The position numbers were made by a program, and so were the translations under genes. Positions 2,790-35,991 of a stretch of 37,462 nucleotides of DNA are shown piece after piece. The notes beneath the pieces are model-generated. The model worked only from the letters and a program-made list of their open reading frames with translations. It was not told the origin of the DNA and searched no databases. The stretch's first letter is position 1; every line of letters begins with the position of its first letter. The stretch lies in IMG/VR virus record IMGVR_UViG_2778261530_000007. One strand, given 5' to 3'. The stretch comes from a virus. Its lineage: Duplodnaviria > Heunggongvirae > Uroviricota > Caudoviricetes.

Positions 2790-3140
2790 ATGAAACTACA
2801 GCGCAATTCTTCACAGCCGCGCTTCCGCAACGGTGCGGAACGCCACGCTAACCGTTTCGCTACCAGTGCATCACGTAGCAACTCTCGCTACAGCCTGAGC
2901 GAAACACACGCAACGCCGGATGGCTACCCAGTAAAACAAATCGGCGAGCATACCTGGCTGATTGAGAAAGCTGGAATTGTGGTCCACAAATGCCCACGCA
3001 ATCCGTTTACCGGAAACCGCATTTTTGCATTGAGCAACGGCGACAATCAGTTCGGACAGGATTTTACATTGTACGAAGCGCTACGCACGGTTGACCGCTT
3101 AATTGCAGGACGTAGTTTTCAGCATCCACGGGGGAATTAA
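2790..3140 (+). CDS. Hypothetical early protein (116 aa)
   Basis: ORF in the rightward early operon; no recognisable motif. Confidence 0.5.
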   Translation: MKLQRNSSQPRFRNGAERHANRFATSASRSNSRYSLSETHATPDGYPVKQIGEHTWLIEKAGIVVHKCPRNPFTGNRIFALSNGDNQFGQDFTLYEALRTVDRLIAGRSFQHPRGN

Positions 3141-3143
3141 CCA

Positions 3144-3398
3144 ATGGCAACAACGACAAAAAACATGGTAGAGATAGCCTCGGCCTACACTCTTATCATA
3201 CACCGACTCATAGATAATAATGCCCGTGATGCATTAAATACGGTGAAACCTTTATCGGAAGCAAAAAGCGATACTATCAGCGGATTAAAGTCACTACAGG
3301 AATGCGCACGCTATGCAGGTGATCACGCCGCATACATGGCCATTAACGATGCAATTGAGCGCATTGAATCAGGTAAACCATTAAGAGATTTTGTTTAA
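3144..3398 (+). CDS. Hypothetical early protein (84 aa)
   Basis: Tightly packed ORF starting 4 nt after the previous stop. Confidence 0.55.
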   Translation: MATTTKNMVEIASAYTLIIHRLIDNNARDALNTVKPLSEAKSDTISGLKSLQECARYAGDHAAYMAINDAIERIESGKPLRDFV

Positions 3399-3418
3399 TT
3401 GTTTTCCGGGAAAATGCA

Positions 3419-3661
3419 ATGGGCAAAGAATATAAAACTCTCATTAACAAAGCACTTGAGCGTTTTTATTTTCGCTTAAGTGCATCAGGCGCTCATGCTG
3501 AACGCGCAGCCCGTGACTCATTGACCAGGGCAATCCGGAGTCTGTATGACGTGGCTTTTTACGCTGATGATCTGGATGCACTTAACGAACTTTCCGAACT
3601 CGTCTGCGCCGCAGAATGCGGAGAACATATTGAACCGTATAAGCTGGGGAATATCGCATGA
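3419..3661 (+). CDS. Hypothetical early protein (80 aa)
   Basis: ORF in operon context. Confidence 0.55.
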   Translation: MGKEYKTLINKALERFYFRLSASGAHAERAARDSLTRAIRSLYDVAFYADDLDALNELSELVCAAECGEHIEPYKLGNIA

Positions 3662-3771
3662 GTATATTTATGTCATGGATTGTTCTGATTATTTCGGTGG
3701 CCTGCGCCATTGGGATTATGCGAATTATTCATTCAGTGAAAAAGATTGAACGTTTTTTCTCTGACGAATAA
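3658..3771 (+). CDS. Small hydrophobic protein (37 aa, MSIFMSWIVLIISVACAIGIMRIIHSVKKIERFFSDE), single predicted TM helix
   Basis: Hand-translated; ATGA overlap with the upstream stop; below the ORF-track length cut-off. Confidence 0.35.
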   Translation: MSIFMSWIVLIISVACAIGIMRIIHSVKKIERFFSDE

Positions 3772-3864
3772 CAGCACAAACAAAACACCAGATTAAACAA
3801 GAAAACGTGAAAACCATCCGCATTAGCGGAGGTATTCGCACACGTAAATAACGGAGATACAAAA

Positions 3865-5255: not shown

Positions 5256-6082
5256 AGAAATTCAAACTCTTTCAGATTATCCCTCTTTTTGCCGCCATCC
5301 TGCTGGTTGGTTGCGATCGTGTTGAGCCAGGTAATGTGGGCATCAAAGTCAACAAACTGGGCGACGATAAAGGCGTCGGTGAAGTGGTTGGTGTTGGCCG
5401 CTACTGGACTGGCTGGAATACCGAGGTTTACATCTTCCCGACCTTCAAACAAATGAAGACCTACGATGAGCCGTTCAGCTTCCAGATGAGTGACGGCACA
5501 ACCATCGGCTATCACATCGGTGTGGCCTACAAGGTTGATCCATCCAAAGTTACTACAGTGTTTCAGACCTACCGCAAAGGCGTGGATGACATTACCGACA
5601 CTGACCTGCGCCAGAAGATAGCCGACGCACTCAACCGACTGGCCAGCAAAATGACCACCGACAAATTTATCGACGGCGGGAAATCTGAACTACTGGATGC
5701 AGCTCTTAAAGACATTCAGGAGGAAATGACACCCATCGGTATTCAGGTAATGAGCCTCTCATATGTGGGTAAGCCGGAGTACCCGTCAACCGTTATCGAC
5801 AGCATTAATGCCAAAGTCACGGCAAACCAGAAAACCCTGCAACGCGAACAGGAAGTCAAGCAACGTGAAGCAGAAGCCAACATGTTGCGCGCAGAAGCTG
5901 CCGGACAGGCTGATGCGATTCGCACAAAAGCCCAGGCTGAAGCCGACGCTATTCGTTTACGCGGTGAAGCTCTGCGCCAGAATCCCGGCGTTATGGAGCT
6001 GGAAGCAATCAACAAATGGAACGGCACGCTGCCGCAATACATGACCAGCAATACCGCTGTTCCGTTTGTTCCGGTGAAGTAA
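5252..6082 (+). CDS. SPFH/band-7 (prohibitin/flotillin-like) domain lipoprotein
   Basis: Lipobox signal peptide ending LLVGC; SPFH-like core followed by an Ala/Glu/Gln-rich coiled-coil (EQEVKQREAEANMLRAEAAGQADAIRTKAQAEADAIRLRGEA). Confidence 0.8.
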   Translation: MKKFKLFQIIPLFAAILLVGCDRVEPGNVGIKVNKLGDDKGVGEVVGVGRYWTGWNTEVYIFPTFKQMKTYDEPFSFQMSDGTTIGYHIGVAYKVDPSKVTTVFQTYRKGVDDITDTDLRQKIADALNRLASKMTTDKFIDGGKSELLDAALKDIQEEMTPIGIQVMSLSYVGKPEYPSTVIDSINAKVTANQKTLQREQEVKQREAEANMLRAEAAGQADAIRTKAQAEADAIRLRGEALRQNPGVMELEAINKWNGTLPQYMTSNTAVPFVPVK

Positions 6083-6088
6083 TTAAAC

Positions 6089-6113
6089 CCGGCCAGTGAA
6101 AATCACTGGCCGG
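6089..6113 (+). terminator. Strong stem-loop (11-bp stem CCGGCCAGTGA / TCACTGGCCGG) just after the SPFH gene
   Basis: Perfect inverted repeat read from the sequence; a T-run follows about 10 nt downstream. Confidence 0.5.
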
Positions 6114-6250
6114 AGCAGTATCAGGATTTTTTAGTATGCCGTTCTCACAAAAAAACCGCTTGCCATGCCGCAATCAGTCAGGTTACATTTCCGCTGCACC
6201 TCATAAAACGGGTGCCGGGATTGGAACCCCGCTGACAACCAAAGCGCACA

Positions 6251-6270
6251 ACCGCGCCAGCGGTTTTTTT
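6251..6270 (+). terminator. Rho-independent terminator (ACCGCGCCAGCGGT followed by T7)
   Basis: GC stem followed directly by TTTTTTT. Confidence 0.55.
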
Positions 6271-6449
6271 GTGCGTACCGTATCGCCACGTCGTTTTCGC
6301 ACACGAATTATGGTGGGGCGTATGGGGCCGACTTCGGTCGGGCCGGGTTCTTTGGTTGCCGGTAGTTCCAACCCTGTACGTCTCACCACCCCGAGCTTGG
6401 AACCTCTGGATGGTGAGTTTTCAAAACTTACAACCAAAGAGGCCACACC

Positions 6450-6680
6450 ATGGCAAACCGCAAACAACAGCGCACATACGCTGCGCGTCGTCACATCCAG
6501 ACTGAAATCAACCGCAGACTTTTCCGCGCATTCCGCGTCGCGCAAATCATGCACATCAATATGCTGCATGAGCGCAGCCACGCACTATCAAACATTTATT
6601 CCGCCTCTGTTTTCAGCTATCTGGCAGATGATCTGCGCGAGCTTCAGCAGCTCATCCAGCAGCAAAACAAACTCCATTAA
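6450..6680 (+). CDS. Hypothetical basic protein (76 aa)
   Basis: ORF with AAGAGG RBS about 8 nt upstream of ATG. Confidence 0.5.
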   Translation: MANRKQQRTYAARRHIQTEINRRLFRAFRVAQIMHINMLHERSHALSNIYSASVFSYLADDLRELQQLIQQQNKLH

Positions 6681-6752
6681 TTCCTGTTCCGGGCCTTTCC
6701 TGCACCTTGCGGCGGGAGGCCTTCGCACATCTGTAACAAGAGGATTGCCGCA

Positions 6753-7118
6753 ATGATTCTCGCCAACGACTTTCTTGAATACCTGCTCAACACAGAGCGT
6801 GATCTTGCCGCTCGCGTGCGTGATCGTTATGACATGTACCTGAAATCCCTGCCTGTACCGCAGCTCGCTGACGGAAAGATTGTTATTGATGGTCGCTACA
6901 TGATTGACAGCCACGAGGGAAATTACAGGCTTTACCGCATTGAAGGTGGCACCCCGTCCATTATTGGCATTTACCAGCGCCCATCCTCTGCAATCGTCGA
7001 TGTGATTGCCGACAGCATCCGCATCACACATCGCCATGCCGACACAGAAGACACCGTGCTGGAAATTCAGCGGCTGGCTACAGTCTGCCGCGACACCCTG
7101 TATGGCATGACGAAGTAA
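6753..7118 (+). CDS. Hypothetical protein immediately upstream of gene A (121 aa)
   Basis: ORF in operon context. Confidence 0.55.
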   Translation: MILANDFLEYLLNTERDLAARVRDRYDMYLKSLPVPQLADGKIVIDGRYMIDSHEGNYRLYRIEGGTPSIIGIYQRPSSAIVDVIADSIRITHRHADTEDTVLEIQRLATVCRDTLYGMTK

Positions 7119-33518: not shown

Positions 33519-33675
33519 AGCTTCAGCCCCTTGTATCCGTTAAATGATTCGGCAACAATCATCACCCACCACGCGCGTAATCTCACCCCTGCGCCGTTCT
33601 CCCGACCCAGCGACAACAAAAAGCAGTAACCCCCTCCGCACGCACATGCGACCATGCCGCACAGGGAGGGAACAG

Positions 33676-34785
33676 ATGACCGACACCACCATGCAATTGC
33701 TCAGTCAGGGCACAGACCCCGTGAAAATGCCGGATTTTGATATTCTCGCGGAGGGTAAAACGCTGTCAGGCGTGGCAGAGCGCCTGATGAGCCTGTCACT
33801 GACCGACAACCGGGGATTTGAGGCGGACCAGCTCACCATCACGCTGGATGATGCGGATGGTCAGTTGCAGCTACCGCCACGGGGCGCGCGTCTGACGGTT
33901 CTCATTGGCTGGAAAGGGGAACCGCTGACAGAAAAAGGCACTTACATTGTTGATGAAATCGCTCACGAAGGACCGCCGGACAGGCTGACTGTTTCAGCCA
34001 GAAGCGCAGATTTTCGGGATGAATTTAACGTTAAACGTGAGGTGTCCTGGCATGATGTGACCCTTGAGCGTGTGGTATCCGCCATCGCTCATCGGTATAG
34101 TCTGAAACCACAAATCAGCGAAATGCTGATGGATATCGAAATCGACCACGCCGACCAGACCGAAGAAAGCGACATGTCCTTCCTTACGCGCATGGCGGAA
34201 ATGCTGGGCGCAATCACCACGGTAAAAAGCGGCAATCTGTTATTCATCATGCCAGGTGGTGGCGTGAACGCACAGGGCCAGCCGTTGCCCTCGTTCGCCA
34301 TTACACGCAGCAGCGGCGATCGCCATCAGTTCCGTATTGCTGACCGCGAGGCGTATACGGGGGTACGCGCCTACTGGCTTGATCTTAATTACGGGAAGAA
34401 GAAAAAAGTCAGCGTGAAACGCCGCAAACCGCCAAAACCCAAAAAGGAGAAAAGCAGCAGCCGTGAAGGTGATTATATGGAAGGCGCGGAAGGCAATGTG
34501 TTTGTGTTACGCAAGACTTATCAGAACGAGCAGGCAGCAAGACGCGCAGCGGCGGCAAAGTGGCAGCAGCTACAACGCGGAGCCGCATCATTCTCCATCA
34601 CGCTGGCGCGTGGACGTGCAGAACTCTACCCCGAAATGCATGGCACAGTAACAGGCTTTAAAAGCGAGATTAATAATCAGGACTGGATTATTGCAAAAGC
34701 CGAGCACACCATTGATAACAGCGGCTTTACCACACAGCTTGAGCTTGAAGCAAAAATCCCGGAATGGATAGCAGAAACAGAATGA
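33676..34785 (+). CDS. D: Tail / late control protein D (P2 gpD); start chosen at the ATG with a GGGAGGG RBS
   Basis: Similarity to P2 D as recalled (SLTDNRGFEADQL, ITRS.GDRH, WxxLQRG, SGFTTxLELE). Confidence 0.85.
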   Translation: MTDTTMQLLSQGTDPVKMPDFDILAEGKTLSGVAERLMSLSLTDNRGFEADQLTITLDDADGQLQLPPRGARLTVLIGWKGEPLTEKGTYIVDEIAHEGPPDRLTVSARSADFRDEFNVKREVSWHDVTLERVVSAIAHRYSLKPQISEMLMDIEIDHADQTEESDMSFLTRMAEMLGAITTVKSGNLLFIMPGGGVNAQGQPLPSFAITRSSGDRHQFRIADREAYTGVRAYWLDLNYGKKKKVSVKRRKPPKPKKEKSSSREGDYMEGAEGNVFVLRKTYQNEQAARRAAAAKWQQLQRGAASFSITLARGRAELYPEMHGTVTGFKSEINNQDWIIAKAEHTIDNSGFTTQLELEAKIPEWIAETE

Positions 34786-35219
34786 CCCGAATTAATTCAA
34801 TACGACAGTTGACTCTGACATCAGATATTCCGGACAGGGTCGTATTTTTGCCTCTGGACAAAGCAACTGATTATCTGAATCAGCTCAATAGCGCGCAGCG
34901 AATACTTCTGGAATCTGCTATCAGTGACCGACAGGCCATAGGCAAAGGAACGCTTTTTGCAATCAACGAAGGAAGAATAAAAAAAATTTGCAAGGAAGTC
35001 ATAAAACACAATATGCGAGTCAAGGAAGCAATAAACATTGCTATGCAACCGGACAATCTTGCTCGCTTGTTCCCAGACAATCCTGAACAAAGAGCCCGTT
35101 ACAGGAGTTTATTAATTTGTTTTGGTCGGGCTATTGCCCAAAGTGAATTTATTGCCCGCGATATAATTAATGCGATGGAGCAATGCACTGCCTCATTCAC
35201 CGAACATCTGGACCAATAG
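34782..35219 (+). CDS. Hypothetical protein (145 aa) in an AT-rich moron between D and ogr
   Basis: ORF with ATGA overlap to the D stop; AT-rich composition; no recognisable motif. Confidence 0.5.
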   Translation: MTRINSIRQLTLTSDIPDRVVFLPLDKATDYLNQLNSAQRILLESAISDRQAIGKGTLFAINEGRIKKICKEVIKHNMRVKEAINIAMQPDNLARLFPDNPEQRARYRSLLICFGRAIAQSEFIARDIINAMEQCTASFTEHLDQ

Positions 35220-35275
35220 CAAAAACAGAGTGAGCAACCTAGAATAGCGGCAGCACCACGTTAAGGGAGGTCGCT

Positions 35276-35536
35276 ATGTTCCGTTGTCCGCTTTGTGGCG
35301 CATCTGCCCGTATCCGCACCAGTCGTCCGGAAAATGATTCAAACACCGTGCGGCAAAAGTATTACCAGTGTAACAACCTGGAATGCGGCGTATGCTTCTC
35401 AACACTGGAAGCTTTCCATAAATTCACATCGAAACACGCCTCCGGCGTTCACTCTTCAGAAGGTATCCCGTGGCATGAGCTGCCAGCTTCGCACAGGGGA
35501 AACAATCAGATGAGCTTGCCTTTACCTCAGAATTAA
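35276..35536 (+). CDS. ogr: Ogr/Delta-family zinc-finger late-gene transcriptional activator
   Basis: MFRCPLCGASARIRTSR ... YYQCNNLECGVCF matches the Ogr C4 zinc-finger pattern. Confidence 0.85.
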   Translation: MFRCPLCGASARIRTSRPENDSNTVRQKYYQCNNLECGVCFSTLEAFHKFTSKHASGVHSSEGIPWHELPASHRGNNQMSLPLPQN

Positions 35537-35596: not shown

Positions 35597-35809
35597 ATGG
35601 TCGGAGGGAATACCCGAAGGCCGGATGTGGAAAGGCCCCGGAAAACATTTCTGTTTAACCGAGGCCCTGACCATACAACCTTCGCAAGTCGTAGGTTAGC
35701 GCCTCTCCAACAAAGGAGCAAGCGCTATGTCGCAAAAATCGCTTACGGCCATCACGTTCTGCGTGACGGCAATCCTCATCATCTGGATGCTGCACGGTTC
35801 GCTGTGTGA
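35597..35809 (+). CDS. mok: Mok-like overlapping reading frame of a hok/mok/sok-type locus
   Basis: 70-aa ORF overlapping hok in another frame, as in characterised hok/sok loci. Confidence 0.45.
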   Translation: MVGGNTRRPDVERPRKTFLFNRGPDHTTFASRRLAPLQQRSKRYVAKIAYGHHVLRDGNPHHLDAARFAV

Positions 35810-35867
35810 AATACGGATGAGCTTCTGGGGAGCGGAGTTTGCGGCGTTCTTACAGTGTAAGCAGTAA
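35727..35867 (+). CDS. hok: Hok/Gef-family type I toxin (46 aa membrane peptide)
   Basis: Hand-translated MSQKSLTAITFCVTAILIIWMLHGSLCEIRMSFWGAEFAAFLQCKQ: N-terminal TM helix then the family-typical LCEIR and AAF motifs; GGAG RBS. Confidence 0.75.
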   Translation: MSQKSLTAITFCVTAILIIWMLHGSLCEIRMSFWGAEFAAFLQCKQ

Positions 35868-35959
35868 GGAAACCGCGACGGGGGAGCAATCCCCCGTCAA
35901 TCGGTTGCCAGGGTAAAGGTCGAAAAGGCACCCTATTTCCAGTTGACGTGAACAACAAG

Positions 35960-35991
35960 CCCGCAGCGTAAAAACTGCGGGTTTTCTTTTT
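35960..35991 (+). terminator. Rho-independent terminator (CCCGCAG-loop-CTGCGGG followed by a T-run) after the hok locus
   Basis: Hairpin plus TTTTCTTTTT. Confidence 0.55.

Follow-up and report, generated by a model that had tools for sequence, protein, structure and literature searches.

The question raised by this locus is how a P2-like prophage came to hold an AT-rich open reading frame (ORF) between two conserved genes, and whether that ORF still serves the phage. The window, i.e., the whole stretch of 37,462 nucleotides (nt) analysed here (IMG/VR virus record IMGVR_UViG_2778261530_000007), is Escherichia coli chromosomal DNA that carries a P88-like prophage (Xuanwuvirus, Peduoviridae; P2-like). 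Its serS flank is 99% identical to E. coli strain UTI89, its start probably lies inside the prophage, and no att repeat of at least 18 nt was found in it. The ORF (34782–35219, plus strand; 145 amino acids, aa) lies between the tail gene D and the late activator gene ogr. An earlier, sequence-only reading had taken it for a horizontally acquired, stand-alone moron of unrecognised type. The foreign origin is upheld by the comparisons below; the identity is not. Alignment with sister prophages makes it near certain that the ORF is an eroded remnant of a two-gene YafO-type toxin–antitoxin cassette inserted at this junction: it corresponds to the upstream, antitoxin-position gene, truncated at both ends, and the cassette is found intact at the same junction in those prophages. 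Taken as a whole, together with the proposal that the remnant has been kept because its helical bundle still binds the ancestral partner and acts on the YafO modules of competitors, this explanation has a rough probability of 0.55.

The flanks of the insertion are well defined. Gene D (33676–34785, plus strand) encodes a tail or baseplate hub protein of 369 aa (PF05954, E = 1e-16; PHROG 52, E = 2e-164) and is called at this same length in all related loci. Downstream, ogr (35276–35536, plus strand) encodes an Ogr/Delta zinc-finger late activator of 86 aa (PF04606, E = 5e-14). Both flanks are present in 1,203 of 5,426 complete E. coli genomes, where their spacing (about 42 nt) is always 448 bp shorter than in the window and lacks the ORF; phage P88 and strain VCSW5 likewise have an empty junction, with a gap of about 42 nt. 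The composition of the insert is deviant, with a GC content of 0.425 (0.404 at third codon positions, GC3) against 0.534 (GC3 0.578) for D, 0.502 for ogr, and 0.526 for the whole window. Insertion of AT-rich, horizontally acquired DNA is confirmed. The ATG of the ORF (34782–34784) overlaps the D stop codon TGA (34783–34785) as ATGA. An in-frame alternative ATG at 34764 would give 151 aa; all relatives begin at the overlap position instead.

The ORF is a real protein gene and not a chance frame, because it has homologues at E values from 1e-86 to 1e-30, a confident AlphaFold2 model (mean predicted local distance difference test score, pLDDT, 83.8), and a ratio of nonsynonymous to synonymous divergence (dN/dS) well below 1. 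Two minus-strand ORFs within the region (34821–35090 and 34880–35080) found no support. The ORF is absent from all 5,426 complete E. coli genomes (blastn, 'distant' mode), including the 1,203 with the D and ogr junction, and from phage P88, and it gave no tblastn match in 50,697 phage GenBank records. The earlier remark that it has no recognisable motif stands as far as curated libraries are concerned. No credible match was obtained in Pfam, PHROG, NCBIfam, or PADLOC; weak matches to FATC (E = 0.1), PADLOC MTase_II (E = 0.0013, 15 bits), and Pneumo_ncap (E = 0.006) were dismissed as noise, and curated libraries were equally without a credible match for the full-length homologue P0004. The remark fails for protein sequences at large, among which a clear family emerges, with 46 clusters when grouped at 90% identity and 32 at 50%.

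The closest relatives of the ORF decide what it is. Among 5.8 billion protein clusters, six are close to it: five contain solo forms, i.e., forms without a toxin gene, and one contains the full-length P0004. The solo forms measure 141–150 aa, share 73–99% identity with the ORF of the window, and all lie at the D–ogr junction with their start at the D stop codon. The prophages that bear them sit at different integration sites (serS, pheT/ihfA, uvrC/pgsA, and flk). P0004, of 208 aa, occupies the same junction in six loci and is 79% identical to the ORF over the common part. The next gene overlaps it by 1 nt, encodes 126 aa, and matches PF13957 (YafO_toxin) at E = 4e-25; by homology, the toxin side is a bona fide member of the YafO family. 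No YafO match was found by tblastn in the window or in any solo locus. Comparison of the D–ogr junction across relatives, which the sequence-only reading had proposed, thus uncovers empty, solo, and paired states. Most relatives lack the ORF, yet it is intact wherever it is present (five alleles), so it is not missing or broken throughout the close relatives, a pattern that would have counted against the sequence-only reading.

The pairing with YafO extends well beyond this junction. Loci taken from GTDB genomes, IMG/VR, and assemblies were scanned with the YafO protein, and in all 24 loci where a full-length homologue is followed by sufficient sequence (L001, L003–08, L017–24, L034–42, and L044–46, less a contig ending at the gene), a complete YafO gene lies 0–23 nt downstream. 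The paired loci comprise prophages, a Pantoea plasmid that bears the same pair outside any phage, a chromosomal site at rne–sbcB, Vibrio-, Photorhabdus-, and Enterobacter-type chromosomes, and other prophage positions. By its genomic context, the family is the constant upstream partner of a YafO-type toxin, which is the antitoxin position of a type II module, and its members are putative neutralisers. A second allele of the full 208-aa gene and YafO pair, about 52% identical, was observed downstream of ogr (L037–L042 and L046 of IMG/VR, at about 2857–3863). In L042 this pair also lies past hok, and a number of the viral contigs stop directly behind it. A distant P2-like phage, with a D of 50% identity, shows the same order D–ogr–pair. 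YafO cassettes are thus carried repeatedly at this end of P2-like genomes, and because the second allele sits both in P88-like phages and in the distant one, P88-like phages do meet YafO modules.

The changes that produced the solo form can be read from a pairwise alignment of the window with L003, the paired reference locus, which yields four collinear plus-strand blocks. The first covers the 3′ end of D (L003 5779–5911; window 34653–34785). The second is the common coding block, 85% identical (L003 6113–6517; window 34786–35190), and the third continues it (L003 6521–6531; window 35191–35201). Together, these two form the segment of the ORF at 34786–35201 that is homologous to codons 38–177 of the 208-aa gene, again with 85% nucleotide identity. 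The fourth block runs from the 3′ relic of yafO through ogr (L003 6998–7126; window 35202–35330). In L003, the upstream region occupies 5912–6000, the 208-aa gene 6001–6627, and the YafO gene 6627–7007. Two deletions separate the states. Deletion 1 removed 201 nt (L003 5912–6112), namely the 90-bp upstream region with its GAGGA Shine–Dalgarno sequence and codons 1–37; in this way, what was left of the frame came to abut the D stop codon as ATGA. Deletion 2 removed 466 nt (L003 6532–6997), namely codons from about 178 to 208 and all of the toxin gene except its last 10 nt. These 10 nt survive at 35202–35211 on the plus strand (GAACATCTGG, against GAACTCCTGA in L003), where they are read in another frame as part of the C-terminal tail TEHLDQ-stop; the rest of this tail comes from the intergenic DNA that follows. 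The solo tails occur in three frames, TEHLDQ-stop, IHRTPESIVKTE-stop, and HSPTT-stop, the last of which stops at the old yafO stop codon, and small indels after the deletion account for them. Because all five solo alleles have both junctions in common, a single origin of the solo form is the simplest reading of the alignments. In the likely order of events, the toxin deletion would have come first and the loss of the upstream region second, because the reverse order would strip an intact toxin gene of the upstream region, which should be lethal.

An imperfect direct repeat of the D 3′ end, about 28 nt long, flanks the intact cassette. In the window, the left copy is the D 3′ end itself (34762–34785, plus strand; GAATGGATAGCAGAAACAGAATGA), which deletion 1 cuts off right after the D stop codon, and the right copy lies at 35210–35237 (plus strand; GGACCAATAGCAAAAACAGAGTGAGCAA) and holds the stop codon TAG of the ORF (35217–35219). 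Of the six paired loci, all but L004 contain two copies of the 15-mer AAACAGAGTGAGCAA; L004 and the empty sites contain one. Such a duplication would preserve the end of D as well as the ogr promoter. The ORF would then lie upstream of that promoter, with the D transcript as its probable sole source of message. The start codon was altered as well. The last D codon is GAA in the window and GAG in empty and paired loci, a change that is synonymous in D and makes the ATG of the ORF; the overlap reads ATGA in four of the five solo alleles and GTGA in empty and paired loci.

The family to which the ORF belongs is small. Its 46 clusters come from Enterobacterales and Vibrio and nearly all contain proteins of 203–210 aa; an exhaustive hidden Markov model search of 1.84 billion representative proteins returned only 32 representatives. 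The ORF matches all 46 clusters (E from 1e-86 to 1e-30), and its membership rests on homology of the central domain. Across remote members, the best-conserved elements are an N-terminal LAPVPA(K/N)S motif, a FGRAxA helix, and a C-terminal EH(K/R)xLGLxxPxF tail. The ORF begins at about family position 38, without the LAPVPA(K/N)S segment, and lacks the full-length tail ...MPxxxxVKAMIAAEH(K/R)NLGLSAPEF. Within the core, the solo alleles retain 14 of 14 family-invariant residues, including R50, G56, K81, and F114-G115-R116, with the FGRAxA helix and a GKG motif.

Residues 1–33 of P0004 and the same region of full-length homologues resemble a Sec signal peptide or membrane anchor (MKQKS, next a hydrophobic run rich in Ala and Ser, and finally LAPVPA followed by KS), and the motif is kept even in the remotest members. 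A conserved, signal-like N-terminus is unexpected in the partner of a ribosome-dependent toxin that acts in the cytoplasm. One candidate for a minimal, tail-only partner, P0067 (80 aa), was rejected as a mis-called start of an ORF of about 203–218 aa.

The comparison with the YafN–YafO system of the E. coli dinB operon shows what is familiar and what is not. In both, a YafO toxin (PF13957, E = 4e-25 in the cassette) is preceded by a co-oriented, overlapping partner in the antitoxin position. YafN, however, is a Phd/YefM-type protein of about 97 aa, whereas the cassette partner has about 205 aa, no Pfam, PHROG, or PDB relative, and three parts: a hydrophobic motif at the N-terminus, a three-helix bundle, and a conserved tail at the C-terminus. 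The window holds the bundle alone and no toxin. A literature search (YafO/NetFlax, YafO-like) returned no description of this partner family. The kind of phenomenon, i.e., toxin–antitoxin erosion or phage orphan antitoxins, is already known; the undescribed family is new.

Structure prediction indicates that the deletions spared one domain. The monomeric AlphaFold2 model of the ORF is an all-alpha three-helix bundle with helices at residues 25–53, 63–87, 90–96, and 101–136; pLDDT is 86–98 over residues 20–137, and residues 1–17 and 138–145 are disordered. The monomeric model of the full-length protein (mean pLDDT 73) has a low-confidence hydrophobic N-terminal helix (5–22), a disordered linker (23–56), a confident helical bundle (57–172, pLDDT about 90), and a C-terminal helix (186–199, pLDDT 73–80). 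Both deletion ends fall in low-confidence linkers of this model and consequently leave one complete domain. Relatives by fold were sought with less success: Foldseek gave nothing at E ≤ 1e-3 against PDB and BFVD, fold searches returned generic helical bundles only, and the best hit of a sequence profile search against PDB had E = 0.62. The homology and structure checks suggested by the sequence-only reading thus deliver a family and a helical bundle, and no relative in curated libraries, in PDB, or among specific folds.

Divergence among the solo alleles was estimated by the Nei–Gojobori method over 135 core codons. Solo–solo pairs show a synonymous divergence (dS) of 0.19–0.60 and dN/dS of 0.19–0.39, and none of the five alleles has a stop codon or frameshift in these codons. 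Two pairs, L013–L014 and the window with L009, each have one solo-specific tail in common and therefore descend from an ancestor that was already solo. Between L013 and L014, 15 of 30 changes are nonsynonymous, where about 23 are expected under neutrality (P = 9e-4); between the window and L009, the figures are 30 of 50 and about 39 (P = 4e-3). The D genes of the same pairs have a similar dS (0.12 and 0.22) at dN/dS 0.03–0.04, which places the divergence in the solo state. From these codon comparisons, the ORF appears to be maintained as a protein under purifying selection, and it likely still has a function.

Expression of that protein would depend on D. No plus-strand terminator lies between D and ogr, and a consensus scan found no promoter-like or terminator-like site belonging to the ORF. 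The start overlap described in the sequence-only reading is confirmed, and with it the expectation that the ORF should be read from the D transcript. The protein would then be made only in the lytic cycle, with translation presumably proceeding by termination–reinitiation coupling at ATGA. Downstream of the ORF, a −10-like hexamer TAGAAT (35240–35245, plus strand), read from the sequence 30 nt upstream of the ogr ATG, is conserved whether the junction is empty, solo, or paired. It probably belongs to the ogr promoter; the consensus scan called no promoter there.

In the reading preferred here, the retained bundle would still bind its ancestral partner, putatively a YafO-type toxin, the toxin–antitoxin complex, or the operator of the cassette. 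Its targets may be the YafO modules of competing P2-like prophages or plasmids, and the solo protein would be an anti-addiction or counter-defence module and not half of a working toxin–antitoxin pair. Such targets are ecologically plausible, as YafO modules are common in the P88-like/P2-like phage group. Any specific mechanism is a guess. One more precise and rather unlikely version has a domesticated antitoxin core, expressed late with D, that disarms or mis-regulates the YafO modules of rival prophages or plasmids. If it is true, the ORF would be a counter-defence or anti-addiction factor from an undescribed antitoxin family, in which the bundle, and not the conserved C-terminal tail, engages the toxin or operator.

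There are precedents for such use. Phages employ orphan antitoxin homologues for counter-defence, e.g., the orphan DarG-like enzymes of T4-like phages against DarTG1 (PMC11825919). The window likewise presents an antitoxin-position homologue without a toxin in a phage genome, and, like those enzymes, it would be made in the lytic cycle. However, the DarG-like proteins keep their catalytic or neutralising domain and have a demonstrated activity, whereas the presumed neutralising tail of the solo ORF has been deleted and any activity of it would be putative.

Several observations weigh against a retained function. Of the three best-conserved elements of the family, two are gone from the solo form, namely the N-terminal motif and the C-terminal tail, and the FGRAxA helix alone is left. 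In canonical type II antitoxins, toxin binding falls to the C-terminal tail and DNA binding to the folded domain; if the lost tail is the toxin-neutralising part, as it is in most such antitoxins, the solo protein would be unable to neutralise YafO, and the antitoxin activity of the family members is itself putative. Signals for expression are sparse: the ATG is not preceded by a good Shine–Dalgarno sequence, no late promoter was recognised upstream of D, and no perfect Ogr-type TGT-N12-ACA dyad occurs in 33519–33675, the divergent region between the minus-strand sheath operon and plus-strand D. The total of such dyads in the window is below chance. Constraint on the ORF (dN/dS 0.2–0.4) is far more relaxed than on D (0.02–0.09). 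The paired allele nests among the solo alleles (dS 0.27 between L010 and the paired allele, against 0.40–0.52 between L010 and other solo alleles), which means that recombination has occurred, and some of the solo divergence may date from paired copies. A dN/dS below 1 could also result from selection against the misfolding of a relic that is highly translated. Finally, the allele is very rare, being found in 0 of 5,426 complete E. coli genomes and in only five clusters among 5.8 billion.

The main rival explanation holds that the ORF is a non-functional relic of a cassette in decay, which in toxin–antitoxin cassettes usually begins with loss of the toxin, and that it is translated only since it abuts the D stop codon; the constraint seen would be due to its young age, to exchange with paired alleles by recombination, or to selection against toxic misfolding. 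This is a possibility of some weight, though not a probable one. The loss of the most conserved parts of the family would follow naturally, as would C-terminal tails that drift through three frames, a dN/dS 5–10 times that of D, and the extreme rarity of the ORF, which is missing from all 1,203 genomes with the same junction. The family shows further states of erosion, with frameshifts in P0035 and P0044 and a 46-aa YafO stub behind P0025. Toxin–antitoxin erosion is also well documented for chromosomal systems (PMC13617665). Against mere decay stand five alleles at dS 0.19–0.60 without a stop codon or frameshift in 135 core codons, a nonsynonymous deficit that is significant even within solo-only sub-lineages, and the retention of every family-invariant core residue. 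In addition, both deletions stop in linkers, so that a whole domain with a confident fold remains, and the start codon was improved from GTG to ATG.

The parallel with chromosomal erosion goes some way. Anti-addiction modules are reportedly treated by Saavedra De Bast et al. (2008), and in chromosomal erosion and anti-addiction as in the present family, the toxin gene is lost, the antitoxin-side gene persists, and several decay states occur per family. Unlike those cases, the remnant here is trimmed on both sides to one domain, coupled to a tail gene, and conserved in five alleles. One such decay state was observed at L032 4001–4596 and L033 778–1373, where the C-terminal tail is kept and followed by a 46-aa YafO stub; the called start of this partner gene is MFLPL, and homology reaches further upstream. 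In L032, a gene with an HP1_ORF34 domain lies upstream, and the locus adjoins dsbB and nhaB.

A further alternative assigns the basic bundle to dimerisation or DNA binding. The solo protein would then be a trans-regulator or dominant-negative subunit without direct toxin neutralisation, binding operators of related YafO cassettes or forming mixed oligomers with co-resident full-length antitoxins and thereby altering expression. The charge distribution is in its favour, with an isoelectric point of 9.2–9.4 for the core (basic) and of 5.6 and 6.2 for the lost tail and the toxin (acidic), as are the general division of labour in type II antitoxins described above and the occurrence of related paired cassettes in the same phage group. 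It is nevertheless improbable: no helix-turn-helix or ribbon-helix-helix domain was found by Pfam in the ORF or in full-length P0004, no other DNA-binding fold was recognised, Foldseek offered no relative at its E ≤ 1e-3 threshold, and the operator itself is hypothetical.

The last alternative takes the name 'iron-sulfur cluster assembly scaffold protein SufA', which NCBI and UniRef attach to most members (P0001, P0003–P0005, P0009, P0011, P0016, P0019–P0021, and others) and which is its only support, at face value; it can be set aside, because there is no match to an Fe-S biosynthesis/HesB Pfam domain (E ≤ 1) or to NCBIfam SufA/IscA (E ≤ 10), the predicted fold is all-helical, and the genomic partner is always a YafO toxin and never suf genes. 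The name looks like a propagated misannotation.

With its origin as a cassette remnant in place, the description of the ORF as a moron holds in part. Its position between conserved genes and its deviant composition agree with that term. A moron in the strict sense carries its own promoter and terminator; the ORF has neither, and the ancestral 90-bp upstream region has been deleted. Cargo hotspots of P2-like phages have been described at gpA–gpQ, Z/fun, int–att, old/tin, and 'tail protein–CI' (PMC9122126, PMC13586616, bioRxiv 10.1101/2024.10.15.618418), and the D–ogr junction is not named as a main hotspot in these three sources. It behaves like one, since it holds variable cargo of foreign composition and phages 500465-2 and 520873 carry different genes there; the solo ORF differs from the cargo of known hotspots in lacking a promoter and terminator of its own. 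In phage 500465-2, the junction holds a minus-strand gene of 340 aa (L025 1863–2885), whose match to the RiboL-PSP HEPN family is sub-threshold (E = 1e-4, 22.5 bits against a cutoff of 28.4). In phage 520873, it holds a plus-strand ORF of 132 aa without a family (L026 1900–2298), and the D gene is annotated as three pieces.

Other features of the window were recorded in passing. Between ogr and serS lies a Hok/Gef-type type I toxin gene (35727–35867, plus strand; 46 aa; PF01848, E = 4e-7; PHROG 251 'MokW-like', E = 1e-22), which is followed by a terminator-like hairpin (35957–35984) and which most P88-like relatives have at the same place. The early region of the prophage holds isrK (6196–6270, plus strand; Rfam, 69.5 bits), directly followed by a C4 antisense RNA (6306–6393, plus strand; Rfam, 84.4 bits). 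This pair constitutes an antisense control element of the P1/P7 immI type within a P2-like phage.

With this analysis, a prophage ORF that had no identity gains an evolutionary history, as a single domain that was, in all probability, cut from a toxin–antitoxin cassette and rewired to a tail gene. The analysis also exposes an uncharacterised family of YafO partners, with an unusual three-part architecture and a systematic "SufA" mislabel, and it reveals YafO cassettes time and again at the D/ogr/attR end of P88-like phages, where they occupy two positions and occur in several decay states. Activity of the solo domain against YafO modules, should it exist, would provide a straightforward example of a phage that has made a counter-measure out of a defence or addiction module. 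Should the domain be inert, these loci would provide a clean natural series of toxin–antitoxin cassette erosion within phage genomes.

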